A stretch of 60,027 bases of DNA, counting the filler, from Hausera hauseri (Eukaryota), in the NCBI GenBank assembly GCA_046269625.1. It is 11 parts of 11 records of this genome, joined end to end, with 100 filler letters (N's around TTAATTAATTAA, not from the genome) between each part and the next. Parts side by side here need not be neighbours in the genome. Positions count along the whole stretch, not along the records: positions 18,340 to 28,761 come from JBJURY010189971.1; 10 more parts are not named here. The stretch is one strand, 5' to 3'. The translations under genes were made by a program, and so were the position numbers. Under the pieces are notes generated by a model. It was given only the letters and a program-made list of their open reading frames with translations, did not search any database and was not told where the DNA came from. Shown here piece after piece: positions 4,601 to 58,959 of this stretch (its first letter is position 1; each line of letters starts with the position of its first letter).

Positions 4601-5273
4601 ACATCATGGCTATGAAACATCCTTCCTCACGCCAATAACGACAGATAATATTTGTCGACATTTAACTTTGACATAAAACATTAACGGGGTTAATAATTTG
4701 GTTGCCGATTTCTTATCTAGGGCAGTTGGTTCGATTAATTTTTTACCAATCTTCTCTCAAGTACAACTCCAACAGAACCAGCCACCTCAGGATATGTTTA
4801 ATTCTTTTAAGTCTTGCACAATTGTTGACGGCATGGCTTTAGACACTTCCAAACCAGGTCATGCCGTAATAATTCTCGCACCACCTTTACAACGGAAAGC
4901 GTTTAACAGTGTACATTCGCTACACTACCCTGGCACTAAGGCCACTTTTCGTTTACTCCTCCGACAAGTAGTTTGGCCGCAAATGCGCTCCGATGTGCAG
5001 ACTTGGGTTAAGGAGTGTGTGGACTGCCAGAAATACAAAACAATTAAATATTTAAAGCCACCACTATTCCACTTTCCATGCACATCGCGTTTCATTGGCC
5101 CTCTTCCTCCGGACAACGGTCACCAATTCATTCTCACTATGATGGATCGTTCCTAGCGATGGCCAGAAGCCATCCCTTTGCGGAGCGCAAATACCAACAC
5201 CATAGCTGACGTTTTCATTCGTACATGGATTAGCAGGTTTGGATCACCTCGCTTCATCATCACGGACCAGGGT
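1640..5273 (+). mobile_element. Decayed Ty3/gypsy retrotransposon gag-PR-RT-RH-IN (continues at 55393)
   Basis: Gag-like region with Cys/His motif (ICMYHAKF...AHNC); protease LVNSGA (D>N); RT SPWSSPLHVVQKKDG, IDLFKAYHQIP, MPFGLRNAAQTF, YIAD (YxDD mutated); RNase H TDAS and VADFLSR; integrase H..H..C..C; many stops and frameshifts. Confidence 0.92.
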
Positions 5274-5389: not shown

Positions 5390-7175
5390 ATTTTTTCCAG
5401 CGTCAATTGGAACACTTAACTATTTTCTCCAGTGTCAGGGTGGTACACTGCACCATTTTCCCCAGTGTCAGTGGAGACACTGCACCATTTTCTCCAGTGT
5501 CAGGATGGGACACTGAACAATTTTATCCAGTACCAGGATCAGATATTGCACCATTTACTTTGTCAGGGCGGGACATGAAACCATTTTCTCCAGTGTCAGG
5601 GTACGAAACAAAACTATTTTCTCCAGTGCCAGGATGTGACACTAAACCATTTTTTTCAGTGTCAGAGTGGGACACTGCACCATTTTATTAATGTCAGTGT
5701 GGGACACACACCATTTTTGTTCATTCGAAAGGTGGGACACTAAACTATTTTCTCCTATGTAAGGTTGGGACATGAAACCATTTTCTCCAGTGTTATGATT
5801 GGACACTACACCATTTTCTCCAGTTTCAGGGTGGGACCCTAAACCATTTTCTCCAATGTCAGAGTGGGACACTACACCATTTTCTTCAATGTCGGGGTGG
5901 GACTCCAGTGTCAGGATCTGTCAGGATCAGTTTTCTTAGTATTCTTAGTATTCAGAACTTGACAATTTTCTTCAATGTAAGAGGACACTACACCATTTTT
6001 CCCAGTGTCTGGCTTGGACATTACACCATTTTCTGCAGTTTCAAGGTGGGATGATGCACAATTTTCAGTCAGGGTGGGAAACGAAACCACTTTCTTCAGT
6101 GTCATAATGGGACACCACCATTTTCTCCAGTGTCAGCGTGGGGCACTGGACTATTTTGTCTAATGTCAGGGTATGACTCTGCAAGATTTATCTCCAGTCT
6201 CAGGGTGGGACACTACACATTTTTTTGCAGTTTCAGGGTAGGCTACGACACCGCTTTCTCCAGGGTCAGAGTGGGTAAAAATTAATCCACTTTCTCTAGT
6301 GATGAGGAAAAGCAAAACCATTTTCTCTTGTGTTAGGGTTGTACACTACCCCATCTCGAGTGTCAGGATAGGAAACAATCTTTTTCTCCAGTGTCAGACT
6401 GGGATGCTTCACCATTTTCTCATGGTCAATTCTAGAAACTACACCATTTTCTCCAGTGTTAGCTGGGAAACTAGACCATTTTCTCATGAGTCAGGGTGCA
6501 AAACAACCATTCTATAAAGTGTCAGGGTGGGACACTACACCACTGTGTTAGTGTCAAGGTGAAACACTATAATATTTTCTCAAGTGTTACATTGGGAAAC
6601 TACACCATTGTGTCCAGTGCCAGGGTGCGTCACTAAACCATCATCTCCAGTGTCAGGGTTTGCTGCTACACTGTTTTCTCACGTGTCAGTGTAGGAAAAT
6701 AAAACATGTTCTCCAGTGTCCTGGTTAAAAACTATATCTTCTCCATTTTTAGGGTAGATCACTACACAAGGTTTCTGGAGTGTCGGGGGGTGTGGGGTGG
6801 GGGAGGCACTACACCATCTTCTCCGATGTCAAGGTAGGAAAGTAAAATATGTTCTCCTGTTTTCTAATGTCATTGAGGGACACTAGACTATTTTCTCCAG
6901 TGTCAGGGCAGGGCACACCATTTTCTTAATTCTCAGTGTGGGACACTACACCATTTTCATCGATGTTAGAGCAAGGCACAATACCATCTTTTACAGTGTA
7001 ATGGTGGGGCACTACACCATTTTCACCAATGTCAGGGGAAGGCACTATACCATTTTTTTAATCCTCTCAGGGTGGGACAGTACACTTTTTTCTATAGTGT
7101 CAAGGTTGGGCACAGCACCATCTTCTCCTTTGTCAAGATTGAATGCTACACCATTTTCTCCAGTTTCAGGGTTGT
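5390..7175. repeat. Degenerate 33-bp minisatellite (~50 units), consensus ccattttctccagtgtcagggtgggacactaca
   Basis: Unit recurs head-to-tail without spacers; internal AGTGTC/GACACT inverted repeat. Confidence 0.93.
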
Positions 7176-7840
7176 CTCCTCATTGATACAGACTGGTACG
7201 ATTGCTATTTATATTATATATAATTTGTAGATTTATGAGGAGCTGGAAGGAGTGTGGGCAACCACTTCAACAGCCACGGAAACTCCGGAACTGCAGATGT
7301 TCTCGTCACGGCTAGCAACTTCTCCTATTGCGACGAGAATGCTCGCCACACGGTGTAACAGAGGTTGGTGCATAACTTGAACAATCTTGCTCCTAACGGT
7401 CTTAATATTCACCTTTCTTTTCATTAACCTGCTTTTGTTTCATCCCCTTGCGTACGATCCCTCCTTCTATCATTCCACTTACTTTCCTACAGCATCGCCT
7501 GCCTTCCCCTTTTGTCTCCCAGCGATCTTTCTTGCGTCTCTCCAGTCCTGTATCTCTACGCGCCTCTACAACCCCTCCCCTTATGTTTGCGTTTGTTTTT
7601 GTTCTGATTTGCGCTTCCCATTCGGCGGATCTATCACATGACTCTGCGGGGTCCAGCCGCTGCTTTCTTACCACATGCCGTCAAGCGTCGTCCTTCTCCA
7701 GATCTACATCGTGTGTGGCGGTGTGATGCTGGACATAAATAGGCTTAGTTCTATTTCCATAGTTTTTTCTTTTATTTTATTGTATCTTGTAGTCTCGGTT
7801 TATGTAGTCATGTTTGTCTTTGTGTTGTATTGTTTTTGTT

Positions 7841-10940: not shown

Positions 10941-12388
10941 TTATTTATTAAACCGCCCTTTCTTTGCATTCGGTCCACCGAAATTTCCACCAGCCGGTCT
11001 TTTAAACCCGGCAGTATTATTATTGAATTTATTTGTTTTAGTTTTCGCAGTATATTTTCCACTTTCAAAAACTCTCATCATTTTCTCTAAGAAAGCTCTG
11101 AAAGCAATTCCCTGTTCAACTTTAGCATCATCAGCATCACAAAGCGCATCGATTCTCGTTGCGAGAGCAGCTTTATTTGCAAGCATTCTGGACATTTTAC
11201 CTTTGTGTTGTGAACTGACCTGACCCACCAATGAAGCGTGATAAAGCAAACCATATTTTGGTGTGTTGTGTTTGGTTTTTAAGGCTCTGAAAAGTGCCTT
11301 CTCAGCTCCAAGAATTTGTACAGTTGAACTTGGATGTTTTGCTAAATTTATCAGCGTACCGGCGTGGGAAATAAGTCGAGCACCCAAAATTTCACCAACG
11401 ATTGCTGTGAGATTTGGTGCAACGGCCATCATTCGGTTCTTCAAGTATTCGTAGAGTTGGGAACGATTATTTGAAATCTTCTTTATCATAGTGCAGAGAT
11501 TTAAAATCATGTCCAAATCACCGTCAGTAATTTGATTACCACATGAAGTTCTTGCAGCATCTCTTACAGGCTCAATGAGCTCTTCGGATAAAATGTCTGA
11601 CAAATCCTTCGTCAGAACATTTTCACGACGACCGACATGAGCAACAAGGTTAACATAGATTGTATTATCGGAAACTGTCTTTGCTAATTCTGGAAAATGC
11701 CATCCGTACATTTCTTTGCACCGCATTACGTAATTATTTGATGCTTTGTCCAAATCATCCAAAGGAGCTAAATATCATTAAAACTAAAGGGAATAAACAA
11801 AACATTACAAATGGCCTGAACAATCATAGTATCAATCTTATCTGGGTTACACTTCAATTGGTATCTGTTGATACTGTGGGACAGACCAAGATTCAATCTG
11901 TCTCTTTCTTCGTCACCAATTGAAGTAAGTAGTTCAAAATTTTGGATGACACACTTTCGCAATTTTGTAGCATTGACATTGGACACGATTGATGCACCAA
12001 GTTTATCATTCAATTGCTTTCCCAAATTTGGGTCACAGACAACAAGTTTTTCACTTAGTTCAACGAGTTTCATTTTCTTAACTAATTTTTTCAGTTTCTT
12101 AGTTACCTTACATTCGGCTAATGAAACGGCTTCAGTTAAACCGTCCTTCATATCCTTAAACTTTACAAACTTTTCAAGTTCAATCCTGATAAATCATAAA
12201 TTTTTACAAATGTTTGACAAGCTTACAATTGATTAATGCCATCTTCATTCATGAAATGAGAATACACATTATCGATTTTATCGATGTCTTTCTTTAACTA
12301 ATTTTAAATAAAACACAAAAATATGTCTATTAAAAATACGAACCCTAAACACAGCATAACCAGCTGAACTTTCAACCAAAAGAAACAT
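10941..12388 (-). CDS. NOP58: Nucleolar protein 58 (box C/D snoRNP); exons 12388-12344, 12297-12227, 12185-11809, 11767-10941
   Basis: MFLLVESSAGYAVF start; KIDTMIVQAI, YGWHFPEL, STVQILGAEKALFRALK, TPKYGLLYH; GT-AG introns of 46, 41 and 41 nt keep the frame. Confidence 0.93.
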
Positions 12389-13835: not shown

Positions 13836-16036
13836 GTTGTCCTAATGATAGCCGCAGGTCGTCAACCTCAATATTACGTTTTTCATGGCTGAAACTGTGT
13901 AGATGATTTCCTTCAGCAGTTGGAAACAATAGTAGAAACGGTAATCGCACCTTAGTACAGCGGAAATAGCAACAAACCTTTGATATGGGCCGATGAAGCT
14001 GAACGTCTGACCTTTGCAGTCATAGATGAATGTTATCTGTGCCACAAAATATTACCGTTTGATTCATTTCAACGGCTCGTACCGGATCACAATTATTTTG
14101 CCGGGCGATATGTAGGAGCAGCACGCAATTCGTGCAATTTTGCAAGGCATGTGAAGCCATTCCTATCGGCGATTTTTCATAATTTCCGGAGTTATAATTG
14201 CCACCATATTCTGAAATGGGCCATAAACGGTTTTCCACACTGGAAACTATCCATAATACCAACAATGATGGAGAAGTACCTATCCCTATCGGCACGCATA
14301 AACCGGTTACAAATACGGTTTTTTGACTCATTGCAGTTCCTCAGTAAGTCTCTAGGAAAGCTCGGAAATGCCTTGCCAGATGTGCCTCTAACGCTGACGC
14401 AGTTCCCTGCGCATATTGCGTGCAGAAAAGGCATATTCCCATATGACTTTACTCTTTCGTACGAGCGTCTTCAGACAACAGATGAATTTCCCCCAAAATA
14501 AACCGGAATCATAGAGGACGAGTACCACAGAGCACAGGAAGAGTGGACAGAGCTCGGCTGCAGAAACATGTTGGAGTACATGCTCCAGTACTTGAAACTG
14601 GACGCGTACTTGTTAGCCGATGTGTTTCAGATATTTCGTGCTAAGGCGTTGGTGGAAGATAGGCTGGAGCCGCTAAACTTTTACTCCATACCGAGAATGA
14701 CTTGGGCATCCGCACTAATGTCGCTGGACAGGGAAATTGAGCTGTTGCAAGACCCGAAAATGTACTGACTATTTGATGTTGGTATTTGTGGCGGCATGGC
14801 ATTTGTACACAACCATTATGTAACTAGTGATGATACCACATCAATGTTGTATATGGACATTAATAACGTGTACGACTGGGCGCTTTCGCAACCCTTGCCG
14901 TACAGTTCATTTGAATGGATAATGGACAAACAAGAACTGGATACATTGCTGGGGAGTCTGCCAGCAGCAGCAAACACGAGGAAAAGCAGCTCAGTCGGCT
15001 ATTTAATGGAAGTCGATCTTTTGGGACCAGATAAGCTGTATGGCGCTATTGAAGAATTATCCAATGTCCACCCGGCTCAAAAGTAAGGAAACTGCTCGTA
15101 ACGCATGAATCCAAGTCGAATTACGTAGTTCATTGGCGTCTACTGCAGTTTTACATGCAGCTTTGTGTACGCGTCACACAACAGTATCGTGCAATCTGCT
15201 TCAATCATGCGCCGATATTCAAGGGGTACATTGATGGAAATTCAGAAAAACGAGCCGCAATTTGTTCAGAGTTCGAAAAGGACTATTACAAGCTCAAAAG
15301 AAATTCACTAAAGGGGAAAATAGTGCAGATTCTGAAGAAGCGGCTGGTTACGTACACCAGCAAGGCTCAGTTTAGGCGATCCATGCACATTGCCGATGGA
15401 TTCGTTGCGGTACTATTAAACCGGGAAGAAGCCGTTCTGGACCGGACAAGTTACGTCGGACAAGTGGTATTGAAACTGAGCAAGTTAGAAATGTACGAGC
15501 TACAGTATCACAACGTGGCACGTTACCCGCAAATATTCGACGGCTGTGAGTAGTATCATTGCTGGTGACACAAACAGCTTTTTTCTTGAGCTGAAAAACA
15601 TAAATCAAGATCATTTGCTCAGACAAGTAATGTCAGATGGACTACTGGACACATACAACTACCCGCAGAACCATCCTTTGTAGAGCAGCGCGATAAAAAA
15701 CAAAATGAGCTGCTTCAAAGAAGAAAAATGAAGGCGGGGTTCAATACATGTAATGCATATTTTTGCGCCCAAAGTGCTACAGTCTTGTGTCGGACTGTGG
15801 GCCAAAAATGCGGGCAAAAGGCATCCAGCTAAAACAGATGGAAATAAATCACGATGATTATTGCCGTGCCTATGATGGACAAAAAGAAGAAGGAAAGGCT
15901 GTTGTGTCTCAAACGACCATACGATCGATTGAGCACCAGTTGTATACCATCACAAATAAAAAAGGTTACTTTGTCATGCAGCGATTACAAGCGAAAGTGG
16001 GTGGGGCGAAATAATAGTTGGGCGTATGGACATTAG
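13836..16036 (+). pseudogene. Protein-primed family B DNA polymerase (Polinton/adintovirus type), decayed
   Basis: CYLC...DHNY..GRYVGAA, FHNFRSY, FFDSLQFL, RKGIFPYD, YLKLDAYLLADVF, DINNVYDWAL, KAKG-like RAKG, C-terminal AYGH; many frameshifts. Confidence 0.9.
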
Positions 16037-17031: not shown

Positions 17032-17562
17032 TCAAAAGCCGCTGTTTCGGTGCAGTCTCCAAGTGTTTGATTGATTAATTGTTGTTGTTGATGTTGGTAA
17101 AAGTTCCAATAAATCAAATTTTATAATTAACGTATCGTCATTATCCGCGAAAAGTGATTGTAATTTTATTAATGGAATAAATTTCGGAAATCCATTTGCA
17201 ATTTTGAGTTTGTCTTGTGTATTCGGTTTCATGAAACATACCGAACGTAAATCCGGCTGCAGTTTGTCAGAGAAATTAATTTCGCCCCGTTTGTTCAGTA
17301 ATGACATTTGAATCACACCGCGAAACGGCTACCGCAACGAATGACCATGTTCACCTTTGACAAGTGCAAAGAAAACTGATAAATGCGTACATTTTCCGAT
17401 TCCATTACCGTCCGGATAAACTGCAATACAGAAATTGTACTACTGCAAAATGAATGAATCACTTGTTACTTCTACTACTACTGCATCACTACCCGTTTTC
17501 TGATCTGAGAAATTTTCTAATTTCCAAGTGAAGGATGAGGTAGTAGTTGTGGTGGTATTCAT
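17032..17562 (-). pseudogene. Stand-alone TRAF-type MATH (TRAF-C) domain, two premature stops
   Basis: Read-through gives FTWKLENFS...YPDGNGIGKCTHLSVFFALVKGEH..SLR*PF...IANGFPKFIPL...DDTLIIKF, the TRAF-C pattern; intronless. Confidence 0.8.
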
Positions 17563-17709
17563 AATTTTTAAAATAAATAAAAATGTCAGCTTTATTAATA
17601 TTAGTTGGTTGTTATTGGAAAACATTTGATACATGGTTGCGCAACATAATACCAGTATGATATTGAAATAATATACATAAAAGAAAAGAAACACATATAT
17701 CTACATTTA

Positions 17710-18339: not shown

Positions 18340-21300
18340 AATTTTGATAATAGTCGAAACAGTTTTTCTAGTAAATCAAACTATCATACAAATAAACGCC
18401 TAGATGGCCCCAAAAATTTTAATCGACAGAACGGCAGCCGAAATTACGATAATGGTCAATATGGAGACCCTAGATAGGCTACGTCGCAGCAAGGATACAA
18501 TAGAAATCCGAGTAGGTATAAATTCCCATTAAACGAAGATGGTCGACAAAAGATCGGAGGAAATGGCAACTTAATTTGTTATACATGCGGACAAGAAAAA
18601 CACATAGCAAGGTCCTGTCCAATTCCGCGAAGTGTCTCGTTTGTCAAACCTAGTAAAACTAATGTAATTAAAAATGAAAATTTGGAAGCAATTTACGGTG
18701 TCCGTAGAGACACGGGCATGATCATTGAGATACAAGACTTACGACGTTTTCTAAAGACCCAACCTGATACTACGGATCCTAAAGTTTTAGTGGCTAGAAA
18801 CGAGTACGAACATAAGTTACGACTATTAGAAGTTTATCGCGGTCTGCGCGAACCAGAAACAGAATATGAACGTTCCATTGCCCCACCAAGGCTAAGTGAC
18901 ATGGCACGGAAGAAGAACGTTCCTACAATAAACAAAAAGTTATATTAAATAGAAAAGCCTGAGACCCCAGGCAAAGCAGATTTGGATGTAGAACCCAAAT
19001 ATACTATAAAAACGGTAACTAAGGAGGCAGAGGCCGACAAAAAAGAAGAATTTCTAGAACCGCTTATACTTAAAATTACCAAGAAACGAGGCCGTAGCCC
19101 ATCATTGAGACGAAAACGCAAGGATCGTTCTAGATCTTCAATGGTAAAGGAAAAGTCAAACACAAAGAGAGAAACCGAAATCGCGTTACAAAGCAATACG
19201 GAGCGTGCCTCGAACGTTTTGGAAAATAATCTAGTTACGCCCGTCGAAATGAATGAGCCCACGAAATCTGTAAATGAGATAAATGACGTATATCTTTTAC
19301 CTTCTAGCGAAGAGGAAACAGAACAAGAGGAGAAACGCGATCCAAAAAGGTAGAAGATTAGACGCTCATGGAAATGTGCCGAAGAATTAAAAAGAATGAG
19401 GACGAATTGTCTGAATCCAGAGGTAGTACAACAGAATCTGGAGAAACTCAAGACAATGAGTGAACAAGTGGATATTTCTGGCAAGGAACAACAGTTTGTA
19501 GAGAGATTATATAAAAAGATGAAACTATATAGTGAAGGAAAACTAAGCAAAGCCATAGAATTAGATCAGCCCGAAGAAGTGTCGACGGAAACTCTAACTC
19601 AGTGGAAACGCAAATTAAAACGTTGGATCAAAAGCAAGACAAAATTTCCGGAGACATGGAATAAAACTACTCAAGACATTGAAACTAGAATCAACCAGGC
19701 TCAGTCGATCTTAGCTACATTAGAAGCCAACCCGAAATTAAAAAGAGCCGTACGTAATTTAGAGCGTGTCATGAATGAAATTAGATTTGCAATAGTCGAA
19801 CAACTTAAAGGAAAGCCGGTCGAAGAACGAGATGCAAATGACCTAGAGATGTTGGGCATAGATTCATAGATATTCCACCCTTGATGGAGATGATAAAGGT
19901 CGCTTCGACGGCCCCAACGCAATATACAAGTTTGGAAAATCGTATTACAATTGAAGCCGAAAAACAGTCGCAGATATATGGTTTAAGGAACAGAATTATG
20001 TACACTGATAACAAAGAAACTCACAAAATAATCATGGCTTGCATCCTCGAGTTTGATGAATACAAGGACGAGTTTTATTATGCCTACCGGATCATAGATT
20101 TTATTAAAGGCCCAGATGATGAGCTAGAAAATGCTCGCAAATTGTTAGACAAAGCAATCTTAGCAAAGCCAGAAATCGCTAATCAGTTGAACGAATGGTC
20201 AAAAGTAATAACAAGGTTAAGCGAATTAATAAACAGAGGGTAGAATGAATTTCCGAAGAGCGACCCTACAGTGAAAAAGCAACTAGAGGAAAATGCCCGA
20301 AATCTAGATATCATGAGAACAGAAATTGACATCCGTACCCAATTCGAGGCACTGCATCAATTAGACTTTATAGAAAAGAAACAAGAAATGATAATACTAG
20401 ACGATATATATGAGATGATCGAAGAAACAGACTTTATGCGGAAACAAAAAGCGACTTGCAATTTCTACCCGCGATTATGACGGCCAAGCCTATCGAAGAA
20501 ATATCGATCCGAGATCTTAAAACCTTGGACTTTTGTCCCAAATATCGGTCGATCGCTGAAGAAACGGTGAAATTCTTACACCAACCACAAGGATGGATGG
20601 ACGGAATGGATCAGCGATATAATACCGAACTGATTAAAGTAAAGAATGACCACCACCTTAACTTCGAAGAAATCAAGTTTGTAAAAAAATTATTAGATTC
20701 GATATATTCGGATTCAAAGAGTATTAACGACATGTACGAATTAGCAATATTGATGACAGAAATGGCAAAAATTAGTGACGAAAAACTAAGCCAATTGTTA
20801 CAACAGATACAGCAAGTCGAAGAAACTTGCATTAAGACAAAACAAAGAGCGATGAGGTTAGACGAACTAGCTAGAGAACTCGAAGTCTATAAAACAAATA
20901 CGCCCTTACGGAAGCAGAAAAAGCTGACAAGTCACAATTCATTCAAAGATGGCAAAGAAATGTCACGTCTAAACAACGAAATATCAAGAAAAGGGGTTAA
21001 TTTCATCCGAAGAATTATGTTTGTTGTTAACACTACTTCACCAAACATCCGCTAATGAGCGATGTTTCCGAACGACGAAAATGGTCCAAATTCAGGAAAA
21101 ACTACAAAAACTCAGAAAAACCACATGGACCGCAGGTGTGGACAGGCCAACTGATATACCGTCGAGGAACTATCAATTGCCAGATAATGAAAATGAACCA
21201 GATTGGGAGTCATATTTAGACGCAATGATCGCCGAGAATCCGTAAACCCCAATGCGATTGGATGAAATGGAGGTATATTCTCCGGACCAAAGTTCAACGT

Positions 21301-22010
21301 AGAAATGCTCCTGGATCCGGTACAAACCGAAAAGGATTGAATTCAATTAACTGAAGTGAACCTCACTGAAAATCAACTAAGACGTCTAGTTCCCACTTTA
21401 ACCAAACTAGCTAGCGAAGGTACGATTTCTAGTACGGTACCTAAGCTTTTACTTAAGGAATATTCTAAAATTTTAAAGGCAAAGGTAAAGGAAATGATCC
21501 CAGTAAAGATAGTATCAGACTGGATGGACGAGAAGGAACAAGAGTTCACTACGCGCTCCCTTGTAAAGGACGTATTACTGTGAAATTGAGGAATTGAACG
21601 AGCTGATGAAAGATTTGATACGAATAGTAAACCACTCTAATCTCGGTGGTGATGTAATAGATGAGAAGGAGAAGGCCATAGCGAATGCCGCAAAGGTTAT
21701 GAAAGGTCTTCGGTGTAAATTATCTAGAAGTACCTTAAGCAATGAAATGATAATCGAGAAAATTATGGTAGAAAATACCATATAAGAATTAAGAAAAGTA
21801 CTGCTATATCTGGCATTAAAACGAACCCAAATCGAGAAAATTAATTTAACAAGGCTACTAGCTTGGCAAGAAAGGCTGACAGGAAAATACCTCGAGAGGT
21901 AAACTGGTCTAAGTTATTTGAAAAAGAAGAAGAACATCAAGACAGATTCTTCTCAGGTAACAATAGATTCGAAGATCTGATACGAAATGTAACCGGAAAT
22001 CACAGAGGAA
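18340..22010 (+). pseudogene. Gag C-terminus (N/R-rich linker, CCHC knuckle) fused in frame to ~1100-codon unknown helical region X
   Basis: CYTCGQEKHIARSC is in frame with ORFs 18682, 18982 and 19396; later ORF pieces are collinear with homologues at 41292-44060. Confidence 0.75.
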
Positions 22011-22019
22011 ATTAATCGA

Positions 22020-24162
22020 ACTGGCTAATTAACTTTTTGACCATGCTGATATTAATAAGGCAGATGGGCGCAGTCACAGTATATGATTGTGACAAATTTA
22101 GACTTGGTCAAAAATATTCGCTAATACACTTGGAAATGTGCAAAGATGCGATGCCCCGCAGATTAGAAACAAAAGAGAAAAGTTACATATTGTATCAACA
22201 ACGCGAACTAGTTACCTTGGATGGAGTAGAATGTATGTTGCGGCGATCTCGCAGCATCTTCCATTGTGGACTGGTACATGGACACTCGTCAATAATTAAG
22301 CCAACAACCCCACTAATTCCGATAAATTTAGAGCGACAGCATTGTAATCAAGCTAGACAAACGGGCAGAATAAAATGGGACGGCATGGAAATGGCAATGC
22401 AGCAAGGAAAAATAATCAGAGTGTATAAAGTAGCACCAGGAAGGCTAGATATGCACACCAGACATTGTCAAGGTACAGAATACGATACCGGAAAGGGATT
22501 AGAGTCAAACGTCGTGGTAGTAGATTTTTACAAAAACGAAATGCGCATACAGAAAGTGATGTTTCATGGCGTTACTAAATTTTACACCGAGAACCACAAG
22601 TGCCACATTCAGGATGGCACATGCCCGTTTCGAAGTTCTGTAGTAATTTGGGAACCCCCAGCCAAAACCGATTGCAACTTTATCAGAATTAAAGAACTTA
22701 ATTTCGACGAGGCGACAGGAAAACAATACATAAGTAGTACAGAAACTAACTCTAAAACACGAGAAGATGTAGCCGAACAGACTACACCTACGATATTGAT
22801 TCCTGATACTTATGGATTGAAATTTGTAAAGAAAGCTATGCTCACCAGATGCGACGTCATAATGTATGCCACCAACTATGAAACATTTTTCGTAGCCCAG
22901 ACAGAAATAAACGCCAGAACGTTCAAACACGAGACTCAGGACATCCGGATTGAAGATTACTTGAAGAACAGAGATGACTACTTCTACTATAAAGGACAAG
23001 CCGAAATAGCCGAGTTGTACCACAAGATGATAACAAACGACTGCAAATTGGATTTGGAAATCATGAGAACTAAACTAGCTCTAATATACGCAAATCCCGA
23101 GTTGGCATCACCAATAATTCCAATGAAGGAGGGTGTTTTAGGACGAGTAACCGGAGAGGTTCTATTGACGTATGAGTGTGAAAAGAAATACGTACCGATT
23201 AATGTGGAAGAGAAGAGGTGCATACAAGAACTTCCAGTGATATATCAGGACGTACCGAGATTAGTAACACCAATTACCAGAGTGTTGTTGGCAAACGCCA
23301 CCCAACCAACAATTTTAAGAGACTGTAAAACCAGCTTAGGAGAGCCAACGTTTAGACGTATCGAAACCGACTGGGTAAGTTTACCGAACGGTGATATTAT
23401 CGCACCACCTAACAAACTGACAGGAACAAACTTAATAAAGGAATAACCGATGATAAATTTCAGGATACAGCCGCGAAGGGTATCTACCCACCAAAAGAAG
23501 TAGAGGTGTTCAGACAATTTCTCGCTTTTCCCCGTCAGCGCACACATGAATTAAACAGAGCAATGCATACAATATTACAGAACTCGCATTACTAAGCAAA
23601 ATTGGAGTCATTACTTGGTGTTGGCCATTACAAGAAGGTAACTACAGAAATATTATACAAAATTTGGGGAAGATTCCTGATATTCGGACAGGCCGCGTCC
23701 GGTTTTCTAGCGATATACTTCTTAATTCAACTAGTAAAAGCCATAATTCAAGCAATCATAAATGGACACGAGATATTCACCTTGACAGGATTTTCGTGTA
23801 AGATTCTAACGGTTATTATTACTTCTTTTGGCAAATTCCTAAAGGCTTATGAAGCGAGTAAATGGAAAACAGATGTGCAGCGACATATTGGCTACCATAA
23901 TCAAAAACGGAAAAGGCGTATATTCTACTACAAGCAAAAATTCATAAATGCTACGACACGAAGAAATAATTCGGATGATGAGCAGCCTAAGGGAGGAGAC
24001 GTCATCCCCAGGCGGAAGAGGCACAAAAATTACTCTGTTATGAAACTACCATTACCGATTTTGCTGCCAACGGCACCAATATATGAAGATTGCGAGAAAC
24101 AATCTATGAGCTCGTGCCAGACAAATATCTATAGGAAGCCGTTTAGTTTAGAGGATCCTTAA
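22020..24162 (+). pseudogene. Env: chuvirus-glycoprotein / gB-like (class III) fusion protein
   Basis: Hydrophobic signal then VYDC..YSL..C..LYQ..EC..RSRSIFHCG..HSS; Cys-rich ectodomain; GEVLLTYEC, CIQELPV, KGIY..FP; membrane region WGRFLIFGQAASGFLAIYFLIQLVKAIIQAIINGHEIFTLTGFS; lesions at ~23446-23600. Confidence 0.8.
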
Positions 24163-24518
24163 GTAGGAACAAAACGTTATAGGATATTGCACAAGATCCA
24201 CGAAACAGAGAGGACCTCGGTTCCCCGCCATCGATCAGCGGTCGACGACCACGGTATAATTTACTTACCTAGAATACCTAAGCCAAACGAAACCCAATCG
24301 ATATTTACTCGAAACTGTGAGGCAAGAATTTTCCGAAACCCAGATATTCAGCCGCCAGTTACAAACCCAAGAGTAGAAAACGCGAATGGAACAAATAACA
24401 AAGTATACACAGACAGTTAGTCGAGCAGTCAGTTGGAACCACTGAAGTTACCATCAACGGCCACAAAGTGTCTACGATACGAAAACCCAAGATAGCACCA
24501 AGCTATTAAGGTATATTA

Positions 24519-27500
24519 ATCGAAGGCAGACCCTTCGCAAAGATTCAATTGGAAGATTGGGAAGTTTATGCACTAATAGATACAGGATCTGAAATATCAC
24601 TAATAAAATATGATTCGATACCACAATTCTTACGGAAATAATTATATCCACCTCTGCGACAGCCCCAGGAAGCATTGGAGTTTTCCGACAATCCTCGAAG
24701 AGTAAATTCCGATGGAAACCGGAAATTCACATAATGGGGCAATCTTTTCGTCATGAATTCTCAGTAATGTAGAAATTAACGGATGATGTAGTGTTAGAGT
24801 GTGACCTATTGAGACAACTACCTAATATAGCAATCGATTTTAATGCAGGCAAGTTGATAGAACTTGGCACAATAAAAGTAGCTAAAACCACTAAAGACAG
24901 AAAATTCGGAGAAGTGTGGATTTCAGTGGATGAAACTACACCACCCAGAACAGAAATCCTAATATATGCTCAAATACGTCAGGGTGAAGATCAACCAATA
25001 TATTTTGAACCAAAGGAATCTCTCGATCCAAACCTCGTGCTCAGCAATGTTTTGACAAGAGTATCAACAGGCCGTGTACCAATCAGAATAGCAAATAATG
25101 CGCCCATTTTAACCAAACTGTAGGCCAATACCACTCTAGGACACACGTGTAGAGTATCATCAATCACTACTGAGAAGAAACCACATAAGGGTGGCGAATA
25201 TCCGCCACACGTGGAGACTAGGTTTTCACAAGAATCATATTGTCGATTTTACGAATTGCTTTGTTGCTATAGCTCGATTATCGCGAGAGATAAAGAAGAT
25301 ATTGGTTTAGCCAAAACCCTAAGGCTCACGATTCTACCTAAAAAGAAGCGCGGTTCCAACGACGAAATAGATTTAGAGGATCTTAAGATGCCCAAATGAT
25401 GCCCTCCTCCACACTCGTTAAGGCCAGAAATAACTAAGGAGGTTGAACGAATGTTAAAGGCCGACATAATTAGACTAAGTTACAGATCTTGGTATTCACC
25501 GATACTCATGGTTAAGAAAAAAGGTACCAGTAAGCACCGATTTTGTACCGACTATTGAGCGTTAAATACACTTATGATGAAGGACTCTTTTCCGTTACCA
25601 TCAGTAAAGGAAGATTTGGACAGACTTTCGGGAGCTAAATGGTTTACCACGCTTGATTTACAATCTGGATATTGGCAAGTAGAGATAGAGGAGGAAGATC
25701 GTTACAAAACGGCACTTAAGACACATAACGGTATATATGAATTCAATGTTATGCCCTCTGGAATAACTATCGGACCAGCCATCTTTACCCGTATGATGAA
25801 CAAAATGCTAATGGGACTGGAGCACGCATTTGCATATCTGGACGACGTTATGATTGCGTCGAAAACGGAAGAAGATCATTTAAAAGACATTGAAGGTACA
25901 CACATGAGATTGGAGCATGCTGGATTGAAACTGAATCCAAAGAACTGCAAATGGGCTCAGAATACTGTGTCGTACCTCGGACATATAGTAGGAGAAGGAG
26001 GATCGAAGCCGGAAAAATCATTATTAAGTAAGATATCTGACTGCATGGAACCTCAGAATCAAAAGGAATTAAGACACTTGTTAGGATTATGTGGATATTA
26101 TGCCACCTACGTACCAGATAATGCGAAGATAAATGCACCGCTATATCGTTTATTAAAGAAGGAAATCAAATGGAAATGGACCGATGTCGAACAAAAGGCT
26201 TTTGATGAAATGATAAAAATTTTAACTAGTGAACCTGTTTTAAGATATCCTGACTTCAACCTACCGTTCATAATTAAAACAGACGCCAGTAAGGAAGGTA
26301 TCGGATATGAATTGGCCCAAAAACGAGAAGACGAGGAGTTGGAACATCCGATTGCATACGGAGGACGTTCACTAAAGAAAGCTAAGAAGAACTATTCCGT
26401 AACAGAGTTGGAAACGTTAGGGGTAAAACAAGCCTTGCGACATTTTAACGTGTACGTATATGGACAGAAGATAGTAATCGTTACTGATCATAAGGCAGTT
26501 ACGACTTTAAAGGGTAGAGCTAATAATCCAACTTATAGACTGAGCAGATGGATTGAGGAAATCTCACGTTACAATATTGAATTTCAATACAAACCCGGAA
26601 GTAAACATTTCGATGCCGACGCACTATCGAGACTTAAAACCCAAACAAGCGCAGTTACAGTAATGAGGAAAGCACACCTTGATGATGTAGTAGAAAGACA
26701 ACGGACTCTCAAATTAGATAAGGCATTAAAGATTGCTGTCGAACAGAGAAAAGACAGGGTTATACAACAGATTTTCGAGTTCGTTGATACCAACGTAATA
26801 CCCAAGGGTCATCAGTTACGGAAACACCTACGACGATATGGTCACAAATACTGCGTCACTGGAGAATTGAACCTCGAAAATGTGTTATACTACTAACGAA
26901 AATGACGAAAATTAGTCGTCATACCGAAGGGACTACGAACAGAAGCACTCATGGCCGAACATGATTCATACATAGCCGGACACATGTCGTGGAAAAAGAC
27001 ATTGGAAAGGATATTAAATAAGTACTATTGGCCGAGCATTTATATTGACGTAAGGAATTGGGTGGATGCTTGCGAAGTATGCGCAACCAAACAAAGAAAA
27101 GTGAAAAACTATGTTGCGGAGCTTAAGCCTATCGACGTGCACGATAGGCCAATGCAAGCAATGTCTATGGATATTGTGGGACCATTGCCTATGATCCACA
27201 AAATCAACAAGTATATTTTGACCTGTGTAGACCGATTGACTCATTTCGTCGAGCTTATCATGTTGATAGACCAAAAAGCCGAAACGTTGGCAGAAGTAAT
27301 AGTCTGGAAGATTATTTGTAGATACGGACCGCCTGAACAAATTTTGACAGATCGAGGGAGAAACTTTACGAGCGAATTTTTCGACAAAATTACCAAAATT
27401 TTTGAGATTGAACGATTAACTACCACAGCTTATCATCCCCAATGCAATGGAATGTTGAACGAATGAACGCAACAGTTATACGAATCTTATCAACAGTAGT

Positions 27501-27620
27501 CGCAAAGGACCGGAAAGATTGGGATGAGTTCTTAGAAGGTACACAGTTTGCCACTAATACTACTCCACATCCTGCGACAGGATTCACTCCATTTTTTTAT
27601 GATGTACGGAAGAGATTAAT
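24519..27620 (+). pseudogene. Pol: aspartic protease, RT, RNase H, integrase (Ty3/gypsy order)
   Basis: RPFAKIQLEDWEVYALIDTGSEISLI; FTTLDLQSGYWQV, AYLDDV; IKTDAS, YSVTELE, TDHKA, DALSR; H..GH..CEVC, SMDIVGP, LTDRGRNF, AYHPQCNG. Confidence 0.95.
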
Positions 27621-27629
27621 GAGAGAATT

Positions 27630-28056
27630 TGTAGTAAATATGTAAATATGAAAATAGTTAATAATTATACGGAATTTTTGGAAAATCAATTGTAAATAAT
27701 AAATATGAATTTATGCATGAAATTACCTATGACTGCCGACTATATAAGTCAATACACAATTAGTCAAATCGAACAAGTTAGAAGTTAAGTTAGTGTTGAT
27801 TGAGCTGCCTGTAAAGATCAGATATCCAGTTAATTTCCGAAATTATCGAAACGATTTTCAATTGCCGAGCTAGCGGAGAAGCTCCAAGAAATTAGAATTT
27901 TCTGAAGAAGATTGCAGTTGACTCAGATAACTTGAACGATTTGTAGAAAATTTCCGACGACTGTATCGTCTGGTATATTGTTTTATTTGTCAATAAATTC
28001 GTATTGAAAAATTTTTTTATAGTTTTCCGTCTCTCCTTAGAGGGACTTGTACTACA
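27630..28056 (+). repeat. 3' LTR (427 bp)
   Basis: Terminal inverted repeats TGTAGTA...TACTACA, purine tract GAGAGAA just upstream, TATATAA ~27740, AATAAA 27992-27997. Confidence 0.8.
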
Positions 28057-29032
28057 TTAAGGATTAAATTCGAATTAAACTTTATAGTTAAGTTGAGAAT
28101 TTGTAAACTACGCAAAGCACCGCACGCAGTACAAGCATCATAAACTAGTGCAAACATTCTAACGAGAACGTTAAGACTTACCTGCTTAAAATCATTTTTT
28201 TAAATTCGAGTTTCAATATTGTTATAGTTGGGTGTTGAATAGGGACCACCTTCAACTACTAACATACATATTGAGTAAATTAGCAGTTCTCTTTTGTACA
28301 TCATGGTTGCTATGGCAACGATGAACGCATAGAGACACAAGATTACAGGCATGTTTGATTTATTTTTACCGAAGAAAACCTTAGTTACTGGGTGTAAAAC
28401 ATTTTGAGAGCACTTTATTCGTTATTGGTTGCTATAGTAACGAGATATACTTAGTAACACTTGATTACAAGTTTAATTCCGCTGATAATTCCGACATTTC
28501 CATANNNNNNNNNNTTTTTGCACAATTTCAACTTCAAAACAATTTATCAATTGTAATCAATACATGTTTCCTAGACATTATCAAAATGTTGAATTTCATA
28601 TAAAATGAGGTTTCAGTGCGTTGAAATACAGTTCAAAACGTTGAAACCTCGATAACAGTATTTTGAGAAATTATTCAACACTCAGAGTTTAAATGCTCTT
28701 TTTATTAAAGTAATGAGCCCCCGGTTGGTGCCAACATCAGCTTTTCATGGAGCACTAGTCCNNNNNNNNNNNNNNNNNNNNNNNNNNNNNNNNNNNNNNN
28801 NNNNNTTAATTAATTAANNNNNNNNNNNNNNNNNNNNNNNNNNNNNNNNNNNNNNNNNNNNATGCGGAAAACTGTTCCAGGTGATTGATTTCTACTCGAC
28901 CAATGAGAAGTTCGAAAATGAAGCCACAATAAAATTTCGAAAATTCAAAAATTCAAAATCAGCAATCGACTACGAAATCCATTAGCATACGTTGATTTAT
29001 CATTTAATAACATCGTTAGGTTTCCCGATCAT

Positions 29033-30940
29033 GTGATGATGGTTACCGATGAGTTGGATCTTAGCAACAATAAAATTAGAACTGTTAGTCAGAATATGTT
29101 AAAGAAACTCTCAGGTCATACAAATAAAAATCTCGTCATGCACGGAAATCCGTTGGCTTATCCGCCGAAAGAATATTCGGAAATGGGTTTAAAATCAATG
29201 GTTAAATTCTACGAAGAAAACGCAATCGAAGAAAATAATTATTACGGTATCAAAATATTCGGTATGGGCTGTGAAATGTACAAATCGCGAATAATCAACT
29301 CATTTGTAGATCAGTTCGATGAAGATGATTCATCGAATAATGGGGAAAATAAAATCGATTTAATCGAAACGAATCTGGAAGATGATGGGCCGAGTTCAAA
29401 ACCATTTAACGTTCAGATCGTTGATATAATATACGGAGACAAATCAATCGATTTAATGTCCCTTATTTTGACCAAACCGGCGTTATTTCTACTTTTTATC
29501 GATGTTGATAAATATTCGGATGAGAATTTTGAAAAATCCACAGGAAATATTTTGAAACAAATCATCGTTTTAAACAACCAAATAACGTTTATTTTAATCT
29601 GTGTTACACAAAACGATAATGAAATCCGAACCAAAGAAAAAACTCGACAGTGTCGAGAAAAAATCAATAAACTATTCGATGATTATTTGGCGAACATCAC
29701 CGTTGAATTGAGGAGTATTGAATCGAAGAGCGAAATAACACCGACAATGAACCAAAATCTGAAACGATACATCCATTTACAATCGGTCAAAATCGACTGG
29801 CACAAAGAATCCATTGTCATCAAACCGAACGATCCGAAATCGATCAGTCAAATTTTAAAAGCCATTCATAAAATGGGCAAAGGTTCAAAATTATTTCCGA
29901 AAACGAAACATATTATACCGAAATTTTGGGTCGATGTTCAATCGTATTTGGAGGAGGATTCGTACTATTTCCCGTTGGTGACGTTCGAGGAATTTGAACT
30001 GATCATTCAGCAACGATTTAATCTCAGAGCAGCTGCTATAAAAATCGCGAATTTTCTTCATGAAACCGGGAAAATTCTGTGGTGGGAAAATGGTGTTAAA
30101 CCCCTTAATTTTTGGGTTGTGACCTGCCCGCAAACATTAATCGACTGTTTAGCCGTATTCTTCCAGAACGATTTGAAAGCGTATTTAGAGGATCCGAATG
30201 ACGTTGATTTAAAGTTAAGGAGATTTAAAAAGAAATTTCCTGGAAGCAAATTTACGTACAAAGAATGTTGTGGTATTTTGATTAATGAGGCGATTCTCCT
30301 GCCAGAACTAGCAATTATTTTACTGGAAAATATCATGCCCGAAAACAGCATCATTCGAATGTTGTACTTTCTTACCGAATGTCTCGGTTTGGGTTACCCT
30401 GTCAGTTACCCGAAATACCTCCAAACAAATTGGGATTCCCTGTTTATGGAATTGAAAGAGAGTCAGTCAGATTCGACGACAATCGTGTCCAGTGTTGAAT
30501 ATCGAATAAAATCCGCAGATTCCCATAAATCGGTGGAGTTCAAAAGCAGTAAAATACCGCCGATTTTGTTGAATTTCCTTTTGCATAAATCCGATTGTTC
30601 GCCTGAAACTAATAAATGCTGGAATTCGGCAATTGGTTTTCGAATTGGTGCTGCATACAAATTTCCTTTGGGTTTACAACTATTGTTACGTCATCAGATT
30701 TTCAGTCAATTTTCCAGTGTACATGGTGTCAAAGTAAGGAGATTTATCAATTTTTTCTGGTGGTTCTCTGATTGGTTAGTTCTATGCCTTTATCGAATAA
30801 AACTCGAAAATATTTCGTACTATTCGTATTGTTCACTATCCTTACTATTGAGAAATGCATGCTGGATAAATCATTAGCTGTACTGACCAAAACTGGTCTA
30901 ACAAAGGAACTATCATTGTAGTAACCAACTCCGACCGTGA
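29033..30940 (+). CDS. ROCO-family (LRR-Roc-COR, MFHAS1-like) protein, partial, degenerate Roc domain
   Basis: LDLSNNKI and GNPLAYPP LRR cap; Roc-like ILTKPALFLLFIDV; COR motifs IPKFW, FLHETGKILWW, PQTLID; likely intron from GTAAG ~30733. Confidence 0.7.
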
Positions 30941-40199: not shown

Positions 40200-41040
40200 T
40201 GTGTCTTTGTTTGGGTAAAATGAAGTAACCTGGGAAATGAATTGGTTCAAATATTTGTCTCGTGTGTGCATGTTTGTGTGTGCGGGTGAGTAAAATGCGA
40301 GTAACTTGAGAAATGAATGATTATGATATATGTCTGTATGCTTGTCTGTGCTTGTAAAATGTAAGTAACCTGAGAAAAGGTATAGCTCAGATATATGTCT
40401 GTGTGTTTGTCTGTGTGGGTGTATGTAAAATGCAACTAACTTGGGAAAATGTATAGCTCAGATATGCGTCGTGTGTGTGCATGTGTTTCTGCGGTATAAT
40501 GAAGTAACCTGGGAAATGAATTGGCTATGATATATGTCTGTGTGTGAGTGCGTGTTTTTGTACATTTGTGTGCGGGTATAATAAAGTAATTTGGGAAATA
40601 AATTTGCTATGATATATGTCTGTGTGTATATGTGCGCGCATATGTGTATGTGTAAAATACAACTAATATGGGTAATATTTAGCTAATGAGAGTAATATGA
40701 GTAATACAATTAATATGGGTAATACAAGTAATATGGGTAATCTGCAGTTACTATATATGTAATATGCTGGTAATATAGCTAATTGAGATAAACTATAAGT
40801 AACATATGTCCCATGAAGGTAATGCATGTGAAACTAATCAATACACTAATCAATGCAATAATCATTACACTCGTCAATAAATCAATGCAATGCAGCAGTA
40901 TATTATACATACTTTGACTCTCTTTAATTAACTCTATGCACCTATATGTTTAACCCTATATACCTATTAGGCTCACCATATATGCATATATAGTTAACCC
41001 TACACACCTATTCATTTCCCCTATATAGTTAATCCTATTG
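40200..41040. repeat. Tandem and low-complexity repeats downstream of pPolB
   Basis: ~60-70-bp units with aagtaacctgggaaa and (TG)n tracts, then gtaatatg-type and accctata-type short repeats. Confidence 0.7.
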
Positions 41041-56780: not shown

Positions 56781-57207
56781 AAACAAAAAAATACATTGCA
56801 CATATCAAGAAAAGTGGTATTAAACAAGTTATCAATCTCTATAACAAAGTGAAAGATCGCAAAACGACCAATAATTCTGGGAGATGAAATTGAATATACG
56901 TTGATAAAATACAATAATGACGAAGAAACAGCGTTTGTTTTATTGATAAAAGATATAAATAAATCATTACACGGAGTTTAAAAACTTTCAGACATCTTTA
57001 ATTTGGAATTTTCTTGATATTTATTACTGCTGACTGTGGCGTGTTCAAAATTGGAAATTTCTCTATGTTACGGATTATTTTCAAATTTACCGTTTGGGAT
57101 TAATGTTACAGATACATTCGAGCTTTCATCGGTCCGATAAATAACAAAATGGTGTCAGAATTTGTTGCATTTTTTCCACGGAAATATTCTACGAAAATTA
57201 CATTAGT

Positions 57208-58770: not shown

Positions 58771-58959
58771 TAGTATACTGAATGCTAATAGCTCGTTAGC
58801 AACAGCTAGAGTACCAATTACAAACTGTCATCATGTTATCCCAGTACTGAACCGCTTCTTTCTCATGAGAATGAACTGATTTTTAAACCATTCAGTTCGA
58901 ACGCGAATCTAACAAAATCATGGAGTAATTTTCAAAATATTGCTGTAAAAAATGCCGAA

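Follow-up and report, generated by a model that had tools for sequence, protein, structure and literature searches.

A decayed Ty3/gypsy element of Hausera hauseri with a gB-type env between gag and pol

Results and Discussion

A locus of Hausera hauseri in which an envelope gene lies between gag and pol raises the question of whether this order belongs to one Ty3/gypsy element and, if so, whether its env and pol were once made as parts of a single polyprotein. The window analyzed (60,027 nucleotides in total) consists of contigs joined by N linkers, and the whole finding lies inside one contig (18340-28761). Pfam matches established the order gag knuckle, X, env, protease (PR), reverse transcriptase (RT), RNase H (RH), integrase (IN) and LTR as real, with all parts on the plus strand, in agreement with the original prediction of gag-X-env-PR-RT-RH-IN on one strand of one contig. 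The features are as follows, the last one lying on another contig of the window:

18340-18948, plus strand: 3' part of gag, with an Asn/Arg-rich stretch and one CCHC zinc knuckle
18949-22015, plus strand: X, about 1,000 decayed codons, charged, predicted all-helical and without a membrane segment (codon-position substitutions, hydropathy)
22016-22075, plus strand: env signal-like hydrophobic segment
22016-23595, plus strand: env ectodomain, class III fusogen of Monjiviricetes/herpes gB type
23596-24159, plus strand: env membrane-proximal region, TM, second weaker hydrophobic stretch and basic cytoplasmic tail (PF24664, hydropathy)
24160-24509, plus strand: poorly conserved env-PR linker (frame/stop analysis)
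24510-24770, plus strand: aspartic protease (LIDTGS), frameshifted
24773-25399, plus strand: PR-RT spacer, homologous to that of relatives
25400-26896, plus strand: reverse transcriptase (YLDD) and RNase H
26906-27616, plus strand: frameshifted integrase with zinc finger and core, lacking the C-terminal domain
27630-28056, plus strand: LTR-like sequence of 427 bp with 7-bp inverted ends (TGTAGTA...TACTACA)
41292-45611, minus strand: second related decayed element (nucleotide and amino acid match), with a whole gag (capsid-like, knuckle) followed by X, its contig ending before env

The pol order PR-RT-RNase H-IN is that of Ty3/gypsy elements (Metaviridae), as is an upstream gag with capsid and nucleocapsid, represented here by the knuckle in the study copy and the capsid-like gag in the second copy. 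In addition, by Pfam, env stands between gag and pol as in the GAG-ENV-POL errantiviruses with gB-type env; intact ORFs, required for inclusion in that group's catalogue (PMC13524379), are not seen in the study copy, which concerns this copy and not the family. The copy is decayed, as had been recognized before, with about 12 frame changes and many stops, and its own frame continuity is for this reason unreadable. The best frame holds 0-2 stops in 16 of 17 coding segments and the LTR 9-13 in all three frames, the short stretches flanking the protease being unable to discriminate between frames in this test. GC content is similar from gag to IN (0.38-0.43), with an A-rich skew of 0.18-0.28 along the same span, and self-blastn of the contig detected neither an LTR repeat nor any other internal repeat, which upholds the reported lack of an internal LTR at the X/env and env/PR junctions. 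The gag-to-IN core measures about 10 kb, a lower bound for the true size, as a 3' deletion is likely.

Gag and the Accessory Region X

The contig starts inside gag, and consequently the 5' part of gag, the 5' LTR, the PBS and the TSD are absent from it. The remaining 3' part (zf-CCHC, E 6e-5, 18478-18945) is 58% identical to that of the second element, which overall shares 65% nucleotide identity with the study copy over 2.5 kb and 37-62% at the amino acid level. Gag of the second element starts with the ATG at 45127 and matches Retrotrans_gag below the cut-off (E 0.007); it too adjoins X, whose single frame there extends over 675 codons, interrupted by 7 stops. Between the two copies, substitutions in X amount to 33/21/52% at codon positions 1/2/3 (pN 0.24, pS 0.75), a pattern indicating that X was coding and under purifying selection, as the predicted coding region between knuckle and env would require. 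Its predicted length of about 3.4 kb was also borne out, the distance from the knuckle to the env signal being about 3.3-3.4 kb.

No Pfam family matched X at the cut-off and no homologue was detected, including in the env relatives. Likewise, a piece of X returned nothing at E <= 0.001 in a word-indexed protein search and no usable match in the ESM Atlas, and the single-sequence fold of the second-copy X (pLDDT 38) was unusable and left out of fold searching. Pfam gave no match to BCL2, BIR, ankyrin or MATH in the study copy, X included, where decay lowers sensitivity. A Bcl-2-like domain suspected by eye at the end of X found no support, since a profile built from three relatives scored X no better than chance (E 3.6-8, 798 tiles compared).

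The Env Region

Env is a class III fusogen of the Monjiviricetes/herpes-gB type by both Pfam and Foldseek. Monjiviricetes_fusion (PF24664) matches 22016-23443 (E 1e-37, profile 7-455) and 23596-24159 (E 1e-15, profile 527-611), and the top Foldseek matches were gB, Dhori/Thogoto GP and GP64, with E about 2e-7 and low TM-scores. Moreover, 13 columns are invariant in the env alignment A1 with relatives, 9 of them Cys, and hydropathy places the ectodomain between a signal-like segment and a TM, as in HSV/gB-type proteins. The ectodomain is interrupted by a frame change near 23430 and by a single stop at 23593.

The signal-like segment (KD19 1.69 at 22025) aligns with internal signal-like segments of relatives and is preceded by an in-frame stop at 22013; its cleavage site was placed by eye. 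The hydrophobic core starts upstream of the first ATG (22043), and a start there would leave only 10 signal residues. The TM spans about 23690-23760 (KD19 2.18) and is followed by a second hydrophobic stretch at about 23773-23830 (KD19 1.68), which is also present in four relatives (KD 1.5-1.7). If this second stretch crossed the membrane, pol would be put in the lumen, which counts against the single-polyprotein model.

Linker, Pol and LTR

In the env frame, the linker carries stops at 24160 and 24418, and the protease lies in another frame. The TM-to-protease distance is about 304 codons, and 130-390 in relatives. A programmed -1 frameshift at env/PR was considered and rejected, as 0 of 22 slippery heptamers fall inside the linker. 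In the study copy, the stop at X/env, together with the stops and frame difference between env tail and protease, speaks against a single polyprotein.

Downstream, the protease (RVP, E 5e-4, match within 24510-24638) is followed by the PR-RT spacer (phmmer E 3e-5 to P0166 and 3e-4 to P0002), which sits where the reported dUTPase-like domain of Burro elements does and has no Pfam dUTPase match. RT and RNase H were identified with RVT_1 (E 2e-30) and RT_RNaseH (E 3e-30; 25559-26893), and the integrase region with Integrase_H2C2 (E 2e-19) and rve (E 5e-14; 26906-27463). The integrase match to relatives ends 13 nt 5' of the LTR, without the relatives' C-terminal part, and for this reason the copy likely carries a 3' deletion at the integrase end.

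The predicted TGTAGTA...TACTACA LTR was found, with TATATA at 27741 and AATAAA at 27992. This single TG...CA stretch is likely the 3' LTR of the element, a candidate that has no 5' LTR in the contig to match; the PPT is obscured, the IN match ending so close to the LTR. A solo LTR inserted into IN was rejected, as direct repeats do not flank the LTR and IN does not resume 3' of it.

Other Copies in the Host Genome

The family is multi-copy: 22,565 host contigs align to the element, covering 30 of 30 bins, at a depth that is uneven (669 to 54,861) and was not taken as copy number. One other contig spans X to env, and no listed piece covers the whole stretch. Among the 15 of 66 joints listed, no skip was longer than 416 nt, so that gag joined directly to PR, an outcome that would have contradicted the original prediction, was not seen there; nor did self-blastn or the contigs of other copies reveal a chimeric contig. 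Seven of the approximately 12 frame changes coincide with length differences in other contigs. Neither of the stops at the junctions, nor the frame change in the linker, appears among the differences listed for other copies (40 letter rows out of 1,403 and 12 length rows out of 13), and all three may for that reason be common to the family.

These data bear on the possibility that X-env was inserted later into an ordinary gag-pol element, or that several repeats were wrongly merged into this contig during assembly: short-read style contigs in a repeat-rich genome, a 77-nt exact overlap between two contig ends, the uneven depth, the want of one piece over the whole stretch, the lack of an X homologue in relatives and an RT placement that varies between trees would all fit, but the adjacency of gag and X in the 65%-identical second element, of env and PR in 11 relatives, the many copies over all bins without a long skip among the listed joints, and the repeat-free, compositionally even contig make it highly improbable.

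Relatives and Phylogeny

A full HMMER search with env yielded 17 relatives at E <= 1e-30, of which 14 were scanned by Pfam; unlike that search, a word-indexed protein search with env returned nothing at E <= 0.001. The relatives are predicted proteins with no more than 25-33% identity to the study copy in env. In 11 of the 14, a protease follows env in the same predicted protein (in P0007 below the Pfam cut-off); RT-RNase H is also included in 5, integrase in 4, and gag or a knuckle upstream, by Pfam, in 4. P0015 (2,146 aa) runs from knuckle through env, PR, RT and RH to IN, and P0002 (2,627 aa, encoded on a contig of 9,084 nt) from a knuckle recognized by eye through env to IN; the latter is annotated in a bacterial bin and is thus likely an unspliced gene call. 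In the other three of the 14 scanned, the env protein includes no protease, P0012 ending inside env and P0004 and P0013 just after the TM region, which counts against the one-protein design. Within one protein cluster, a fused form of 4,844 aa occurs together with split ones, as decay predicts. In 12 of the 17 best env relatives the signal lies at least 130 residues inside the protein.

Searches for the DNA of relatives found none for env in metagenome contigs, for P0002 in genome contigs or for P0008 in viral contigs. None of 120 proteins listed by an RT search carried env, a count that neither supports nor refutes the one-protein design, as only proteins of 780-2,225 aa were covered and the three closest start after the env site.

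The study RT forms a long branch. It fell inside the env-in-frame group in the FastTree RT tree (support 0.80), next to that group in an RT+IN tree (87/85) and elsewhere in an RT-only IQ-TREE (89/48), and an AU test gave p = 0.36. The IQ-TREE set comprised 34 of 127 RT rows, namely 12 near the study RT in FastTree (without P0152) and 22 best-scoring others; 10 of these were dropped from the RT+IN tree, lacking a full IN match. No PMC13524379 sequences were included in the trees.

How Env and Pol Were Expressed

Altogether, we interpret the locus as a decayed copy of a multi-copy Ty3/gypsy element in which a gB-type env sits between gag and pol. The active ancestor, with a probability of roughly 0.75, made gag-X-env-PR-RT-RH-IN as one polyprotein. 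The single polyprotein with an internal signal was part of the original prediction; it gains support through the close env relatives, from the env-PR fusions, the knuckle-to-integrase proteins P0015 and P0002 and the internal signals, while for the study family itself a continuous frame stays at the level of probability. In such a design, ribosomes would start at gag in the cytosol and, past gag and X, the internal hydrophobic signal would direct the chain into the ER membrane, where signal peptidase would cleave it. The env ectodomain would then pass into the lumen until the TM halted transfer, leaving tail, linker and pol to be translated on the cytosolic side, with PR, RT-RH and IN freed there by the protease of the element. 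The expected yield would be Gag, Env and Pol at about 1:1:1, initially tethered at one membrane, which would favor budding of enveloped particles.

Alternatively, the same gene order may have been expressed from separate frames, with gag-X ending before env and/or env ending after its tail, env being spliced or re-initiated and pol reached by readthrough, frameshift or splicing. Stops 22013 and 24160 and the linker frame change, all absent among the listed copy differences, fit this, as do P0004 and P0013 with their ends just past the TM region. A strict 1:1 ratio of Gag to Pol is atypical of retroelements, which also counts in its favor. Moreover, PMC13524379 uses the wording 'ORFs arranged as GAG-ENV-POL', and its search tolerated ENV-POL gaps of up to 2,000 nt; the terms polyprotein, frameshift, splic-, readthrough and fused are absent from its main text, which leaves expression untreated. 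However, env runs on into protease in 11 of 14 scanned relatives, no ATG lies between stop 22013 and the signal core, the A-rich sequence before the signal has no pyrimidine tract (by eye), and the linker has no slippery heptamer and a density of stops and frameshifts like that of domains that are certainly decayed. We therefore regard separate frames as unlikely.

Beyond the single-polyprotein reading, one may tentatively, and with more doubt than confidence, picture a separate long-branched gag-env-pol lineage that built an enveloped particle from one polyprotein threaded through the membrane and cleaved both by the signal peptidase of the host and by the element's protease, much as flavi- and alphaviruses do; X would be a new 1,000-residue helical accessory family, and a second type I membrane protein after integrase, as in relatives, would partner the gB-type fusogen.

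Comparison with Known Systems

The original prediction regarded the design as unusual, but it is not new, as elements of flatworms, bryozoans and nematodes with this layout have been published (PMC6431247, PMC13524379). Arkhipova & Yushenova (2019, PMC6431247) described an in-frame env between gag and pol in Burro/GYPSM1, giant planarian elements of the gypsy type. As described there, Burro has an Env with mononegavirus fusion glycoprotein matches within a 4,873-aa polyprotein, between gag and pol as here, and shares with the study element a long accessory region from knuckle(s) to env and an extra PR-RT region; the single ORF is unreadable in the study copy and found in its relatives. Burro exceeds 30 kb, with long LTRs and an internal region of up to 25 kb, and carries 2-3 knuckles and BIR, ankyrin, MATH, Ubi-like and BCL2 motifs, whereas the study copy has a core of about 10 kb and one visible knuckle, with none of these motifs found in X. 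The study element, with its 427-bp LTR and no Bcl-2, BIR or ankyrin found, does not belong to Burro.

GAG-ENV-POL elements with gB-type env have been catalogued in flatworms, bryozoans and nematodes (Chary & Hayashi, eLife 2026, PMC13524379), so that this gene order is published across three phyla; supplement 1 of that work has 9 flatworm and 10 bryozoan rows, with coding spans of about 8.5-12 kb after subtraction of the stated 3-kb flanks. Gene order and env class are as in the study element, and on inspection by eye six Schmidtea C1a ectodomains are similar to its env in their motifs and in the spacing of Cys; those elements are intact, whereas the study copy is decayed.

The relatives P0002, P0003, P0010, P0015, P0016 and P0151 share env-PR-RT-RH(-IN) in one predicted protein, at 25-33% identity to the study copy in env and 40-45% in RT, without homology to X. 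Several carry repeated proteases and a Bcl-2-like motif before env, and several encode a second membrane protein after IN, all of which the study copy lacks. This second membrane protein is apparently unremarked in the literature. Nematode endogenous retroviruses (NERV) reportedly have a continuous gag-env-pro-pol ORF with a nyamivirus-like glycoprotein, and are said to be monophyletic, confined to nematodes and without a long X. ENV and POL are flipped in them (Sacco et al. 2022, J Gen Virol, as cited in PMC13524379).

Overall, as the layout is already in print, the picture of retroelement design is unchanged. The relatives draw attention to two questions for which the decayed copy is a poor substrate, namely by what route polyproteins of this kind traverse the ER membrane and what sets the amounts of Gag, Env and Pol, and also to the second membrane protein after integrase. 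What the study element adds to the known systems is, judging from its sequence, a divergent family, with a best RT identity of 48%, and an accessory region X with no detected relative.

Composition and state of the element

The window consists of contigs strung together with N linkers. The element, a decayed Ty3/gypsy copy, occupies most of the contig at 18340-28761, and a Pfam scan on 21 natural open pieces of this contig gave the following layout.

Features of the element
18478-18945, + strand: zinc knuckle (Pfam)
22016-23443, + strand: env, Monjiviricetes fusion glycoprotein PF24664, first part (Pfam, E 1e-37)
23596-24159, + strand: env, PF24664, second part (Pfam, E 1e-15)
24510-24638, + strand: aspartic protease (Pfam)
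25559-26893, + strand: RT and RNase H (Pfam)
26906-27463, + strand: integrase (Pfam)
27630-28056: 427-bp LTR-like stretch with 7-bp inverted ends (TGTAGTA/TACTACA), TATATA and AATAAA present

This order on the + strand and the inverted LTR ends agree with the parts described in the original prediction, and its claim that no internal LTR is present holds as well, as no internal repeat was found in the element contig. No Pfam family was detected in the 3.3 kb after the zinc knuckle. The copy is decayed, as had been stated, with approximately 12 frame changes and dispersed stops, protease, env and integrase also being hit. Moreover, the integrase match stops 13 nt short of the LTR while relatives extend hundreds of residues further, so that a 3' deletion after the integrase core is likely. 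Just 3' of the LTR, 28057-28761 begins with another high-depth repeat (bin 28084-28431) followed by near single-copy depth; host flank that includes a repeat of its own is the likely explanation. By eye, a protease-frame stretch at 24420-24470, upstream of the real protease, has the look of a protease first strand and may be what is left of a protease duplication of the kind seen in relatives: six related polyproteins (P0001, P0003, P0005, P0006, P0017, P0151) carry 2 to 7 DTG-type aspartic-protease motifs each, several of them Pfam-confirmed.

Env and its signal

An AlphaFold model of a 476-residue env piece (8-row alignment, mean pLDDT 61) matched herpesvirus gB, Dhori/Thogoto GP and baculovirus GP64 with E ~2e-7 and TM-scores of just 0.2, which makes env a class III fusogen. 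By hydropathy, env opens with a signal-like segment; its TM lies near 23704, and a further hydrophobic stretch, weaker than the TM, follows near 23773. None of the gag-X pieces of this copy attains a KD19 hydropathy score of 1.3. The hydrophobic core of the signal starts upstream of the first ATG following the stop at 22013, and a start at that ATG would leave 10 signal residues, which favours an internal env signal. The TM lies ~304 codons from the protease, within the 130-390 of relatives, and no slippery heptamer was found in the env/PR linker (24160-24509).

One protein or several

A HMMER search with env over 1.84 billion proteins yielded 17 hits at E <= 1e-30. In 12 of these the env match begins 130 to 1,349 residues into the protein, and the remaining five proteins themselves begin inside env. 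A domain scan covered 14 hits, the other three being short env pieces. Eleven of the 14 carry a protease downstream of env in the same predicted protein; RT-RNase H is also present in five, integrase in four, and gag or a knuckle lies upstream of env in four. Knuckle, env, PR, RT, RH and IN occur together in P0015 (2,146 aa) and, with the knuckle recognised by eye, in P0002 (2,627 aa). The latter sits on a 9,084-nt contig annotated in a bacterial bin, which makes an unspliced frame likely. Although annotated as hypothetical within a Flavobacteriaceae bin, the same protein is an animal-type retroelement polyprotein, and its contig is likely a misbinned eukaryotic one. These relatives are predicted proteins, compared at the protein level, and it is they, rather than the copy itself, that provide the decisive evidence for a one-protein design.

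The single gag-X-env-pol polyprotein originally proposed is thus borne out in part, as env and protease are fused in most scanned relatives, while P0004, P0012 and P0013 lack a protease: P0004 and P0013 stop just past the TM region and P0012 within env, which counts against a single protein. In favour of a single protein, one protein cluster includes split forms together with a fused 4,844-aa form, as decay predicts. The same gene order in separate frames, expressed by splicing, re-initiation or readthrough, would accommodate P0004 and P0013, but the fused relatives and the position of the env signal argue the other way, and we regard it as unlikely.

We consider a single polyprotein the best reading, at a probability of roughly three in four. 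Gag and X would be synthesised in the cytosol. With the ER translocon opened by the internal signal and the signal itself cleaved, the env ectodomain would pass into the lumen, and the TM would halt transfer; pol would then be made in the cytosol and freed by the element's own protease. For this to hold, the second hydrophobic stretch must rest on the membrane without crossing it.

In seven relatives a second signal-like segment, an ectodomain of a few hundred residues and a TM follow in frame after integrase (P0002, P0003, P0010 and P0151 by hydropathy; P0166, P0170 and P0171 by eye), so that their polyprotein end is a predicted second type I membrane protein. A similar membrane module lies directly upstream of the protease in P0151 and P0171. 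No mention of a second membrane protein after integrase was found in the accessible portions of the literature on such elements.

Other copies in a public run

One public run contains the stretch, but the window was possibly drawn from this very run, which therefore does not count as independent. On the element contig, 22,565 run contigs align at >=85%, with depth in 30/30 bins. Among the joints listed (15 of 66), the largest skip is <=416 nt, and one contig spans X to env; gag joined directly to protease, the outcome named beforehand as refuting, was not seen among them, and an insertion or assembly chimera is highly improbable. At seven of the ~12 frame changes of this copy, other contigs differ from it in length, so these breaks are copy-specific decay. 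The two stops at the X/env and env/PR junctions and the linker frame change were absent among the differences listed (40 of the 1,403 letter rows and 12 of the 13 length rows) and may be shared by the family.

Region X

The same X occurs once more in the window, where it follows the whole gag of another element.

Second element
41292-45611, - strand: whole gag, then X

Over 2.5 kb the two copies share 65% DNA identity, and X of the second element keeps a single frame through 675 codons with 7 stops. Between the copies, codon positions 1/2/3 differ by 33%/21%/52% (chi-square p 6e-21), with pN 0.24 and pS 0.75; by this pattern, X was a protein under purifying selection, joined to gag in two diverged elements. 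X matched no Pfam family at cut-off and no homologue among 273 fetched proteins, one X piece gave no match in a word-indexed protein search or Atlas, and the structure model of X was all-helical and unusable. A Bcl-2-like motif stands just before the signal, upstream of env, in four of the 14 relatives examined (P0001, P0004, P0012, P0013), as reported for Burro, the planarian giant gypsy elements; a Bcl-2-like domain in X was not supported, as the relatives' profile scored X at chance level.

Kinship of pol

A FastTree analysis of 126 RTs gave a group of 12 leaves (0.80) that contains the element and all 6 of the env-in-frame proteins. IQ-TREE on 34 rows placed it elsewhere with weak support (89/48), and a partitioned RT+IN tree of 24 rows placed it directly outside the env-in-frame group (87/85), that group having 100/100 without it. 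Grouping with the env-in-frame proteins was not rejected by the AU test (p 0.36). The RT lies on a long branch, with a best identity of 48% and a position that differs between trees.

Other features of the window

Further genes in the window
10944-12193: Nop-domain gene
28922-30874: LRR/ROCO-like ORF, weak COR-A
46734-48014: Harbinger-type DDE transposase
48961-50136: YqaJ-like exonuclease
57145-58664: RNA polymerase second-subunit pieces
58810-59712: Forkhead gene

These constitute an animal-like gene set; together with the relatives of the element, the neighbouring contigs point to an invertebrate animal as the likely host. A further gypsy pol, only distantly related (RT 23% identical), lies at 3690-5273 and 55393-55568, and the last 77 bases of the first contig recur unchanged where the final contig begins, an assembly overlap. 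A long degenerate tandem array with a 33-bp unit was found at 5390-7208, and a 65-75-bp array at 40214-40750. A decayed, Polinton-like piece of protein-primed DNA polymerase B (13956-15550, E 5e-7) shares its contig with a MATH-domain gene (17035-17700).

Comparison with known systems

Nematode elements with a continuous gag-env-pro-pol ORF were reportedly described by Sacco et al. 2022. Chary and Hayashi (PMC13524379) catalogue GAG-ENV-POL elements from Nematoda, Bryozoa and Platyhelminthes whose env is of the HSV/gB type, citing Sacco et al. 2022 for nematodes; six Schmidtea ectodomains therein are similar to the window env, as compared by eye only. In a search mostly of literature outside subscription, no treatment of the ER topology of such polyproteins was found, as 'signal peptidase' is absent from a 2019 review, and 'polyprotein', 'frameshift' and 'splic' from the eLife text (PMC13524379). 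The design had been considered unusual, a view that these sources do not support: the element works like Burro, for which an env lying in frame between gag and pol was described in 2019 (PMC6431247), and like the GAG-ENV-POL errantiviruses. It does not match Burro in size and accessory motifs, and it fits the GAG-ENV-POL group in gene order and env class. Overall, it is a divergent element with a type of design already known from both.
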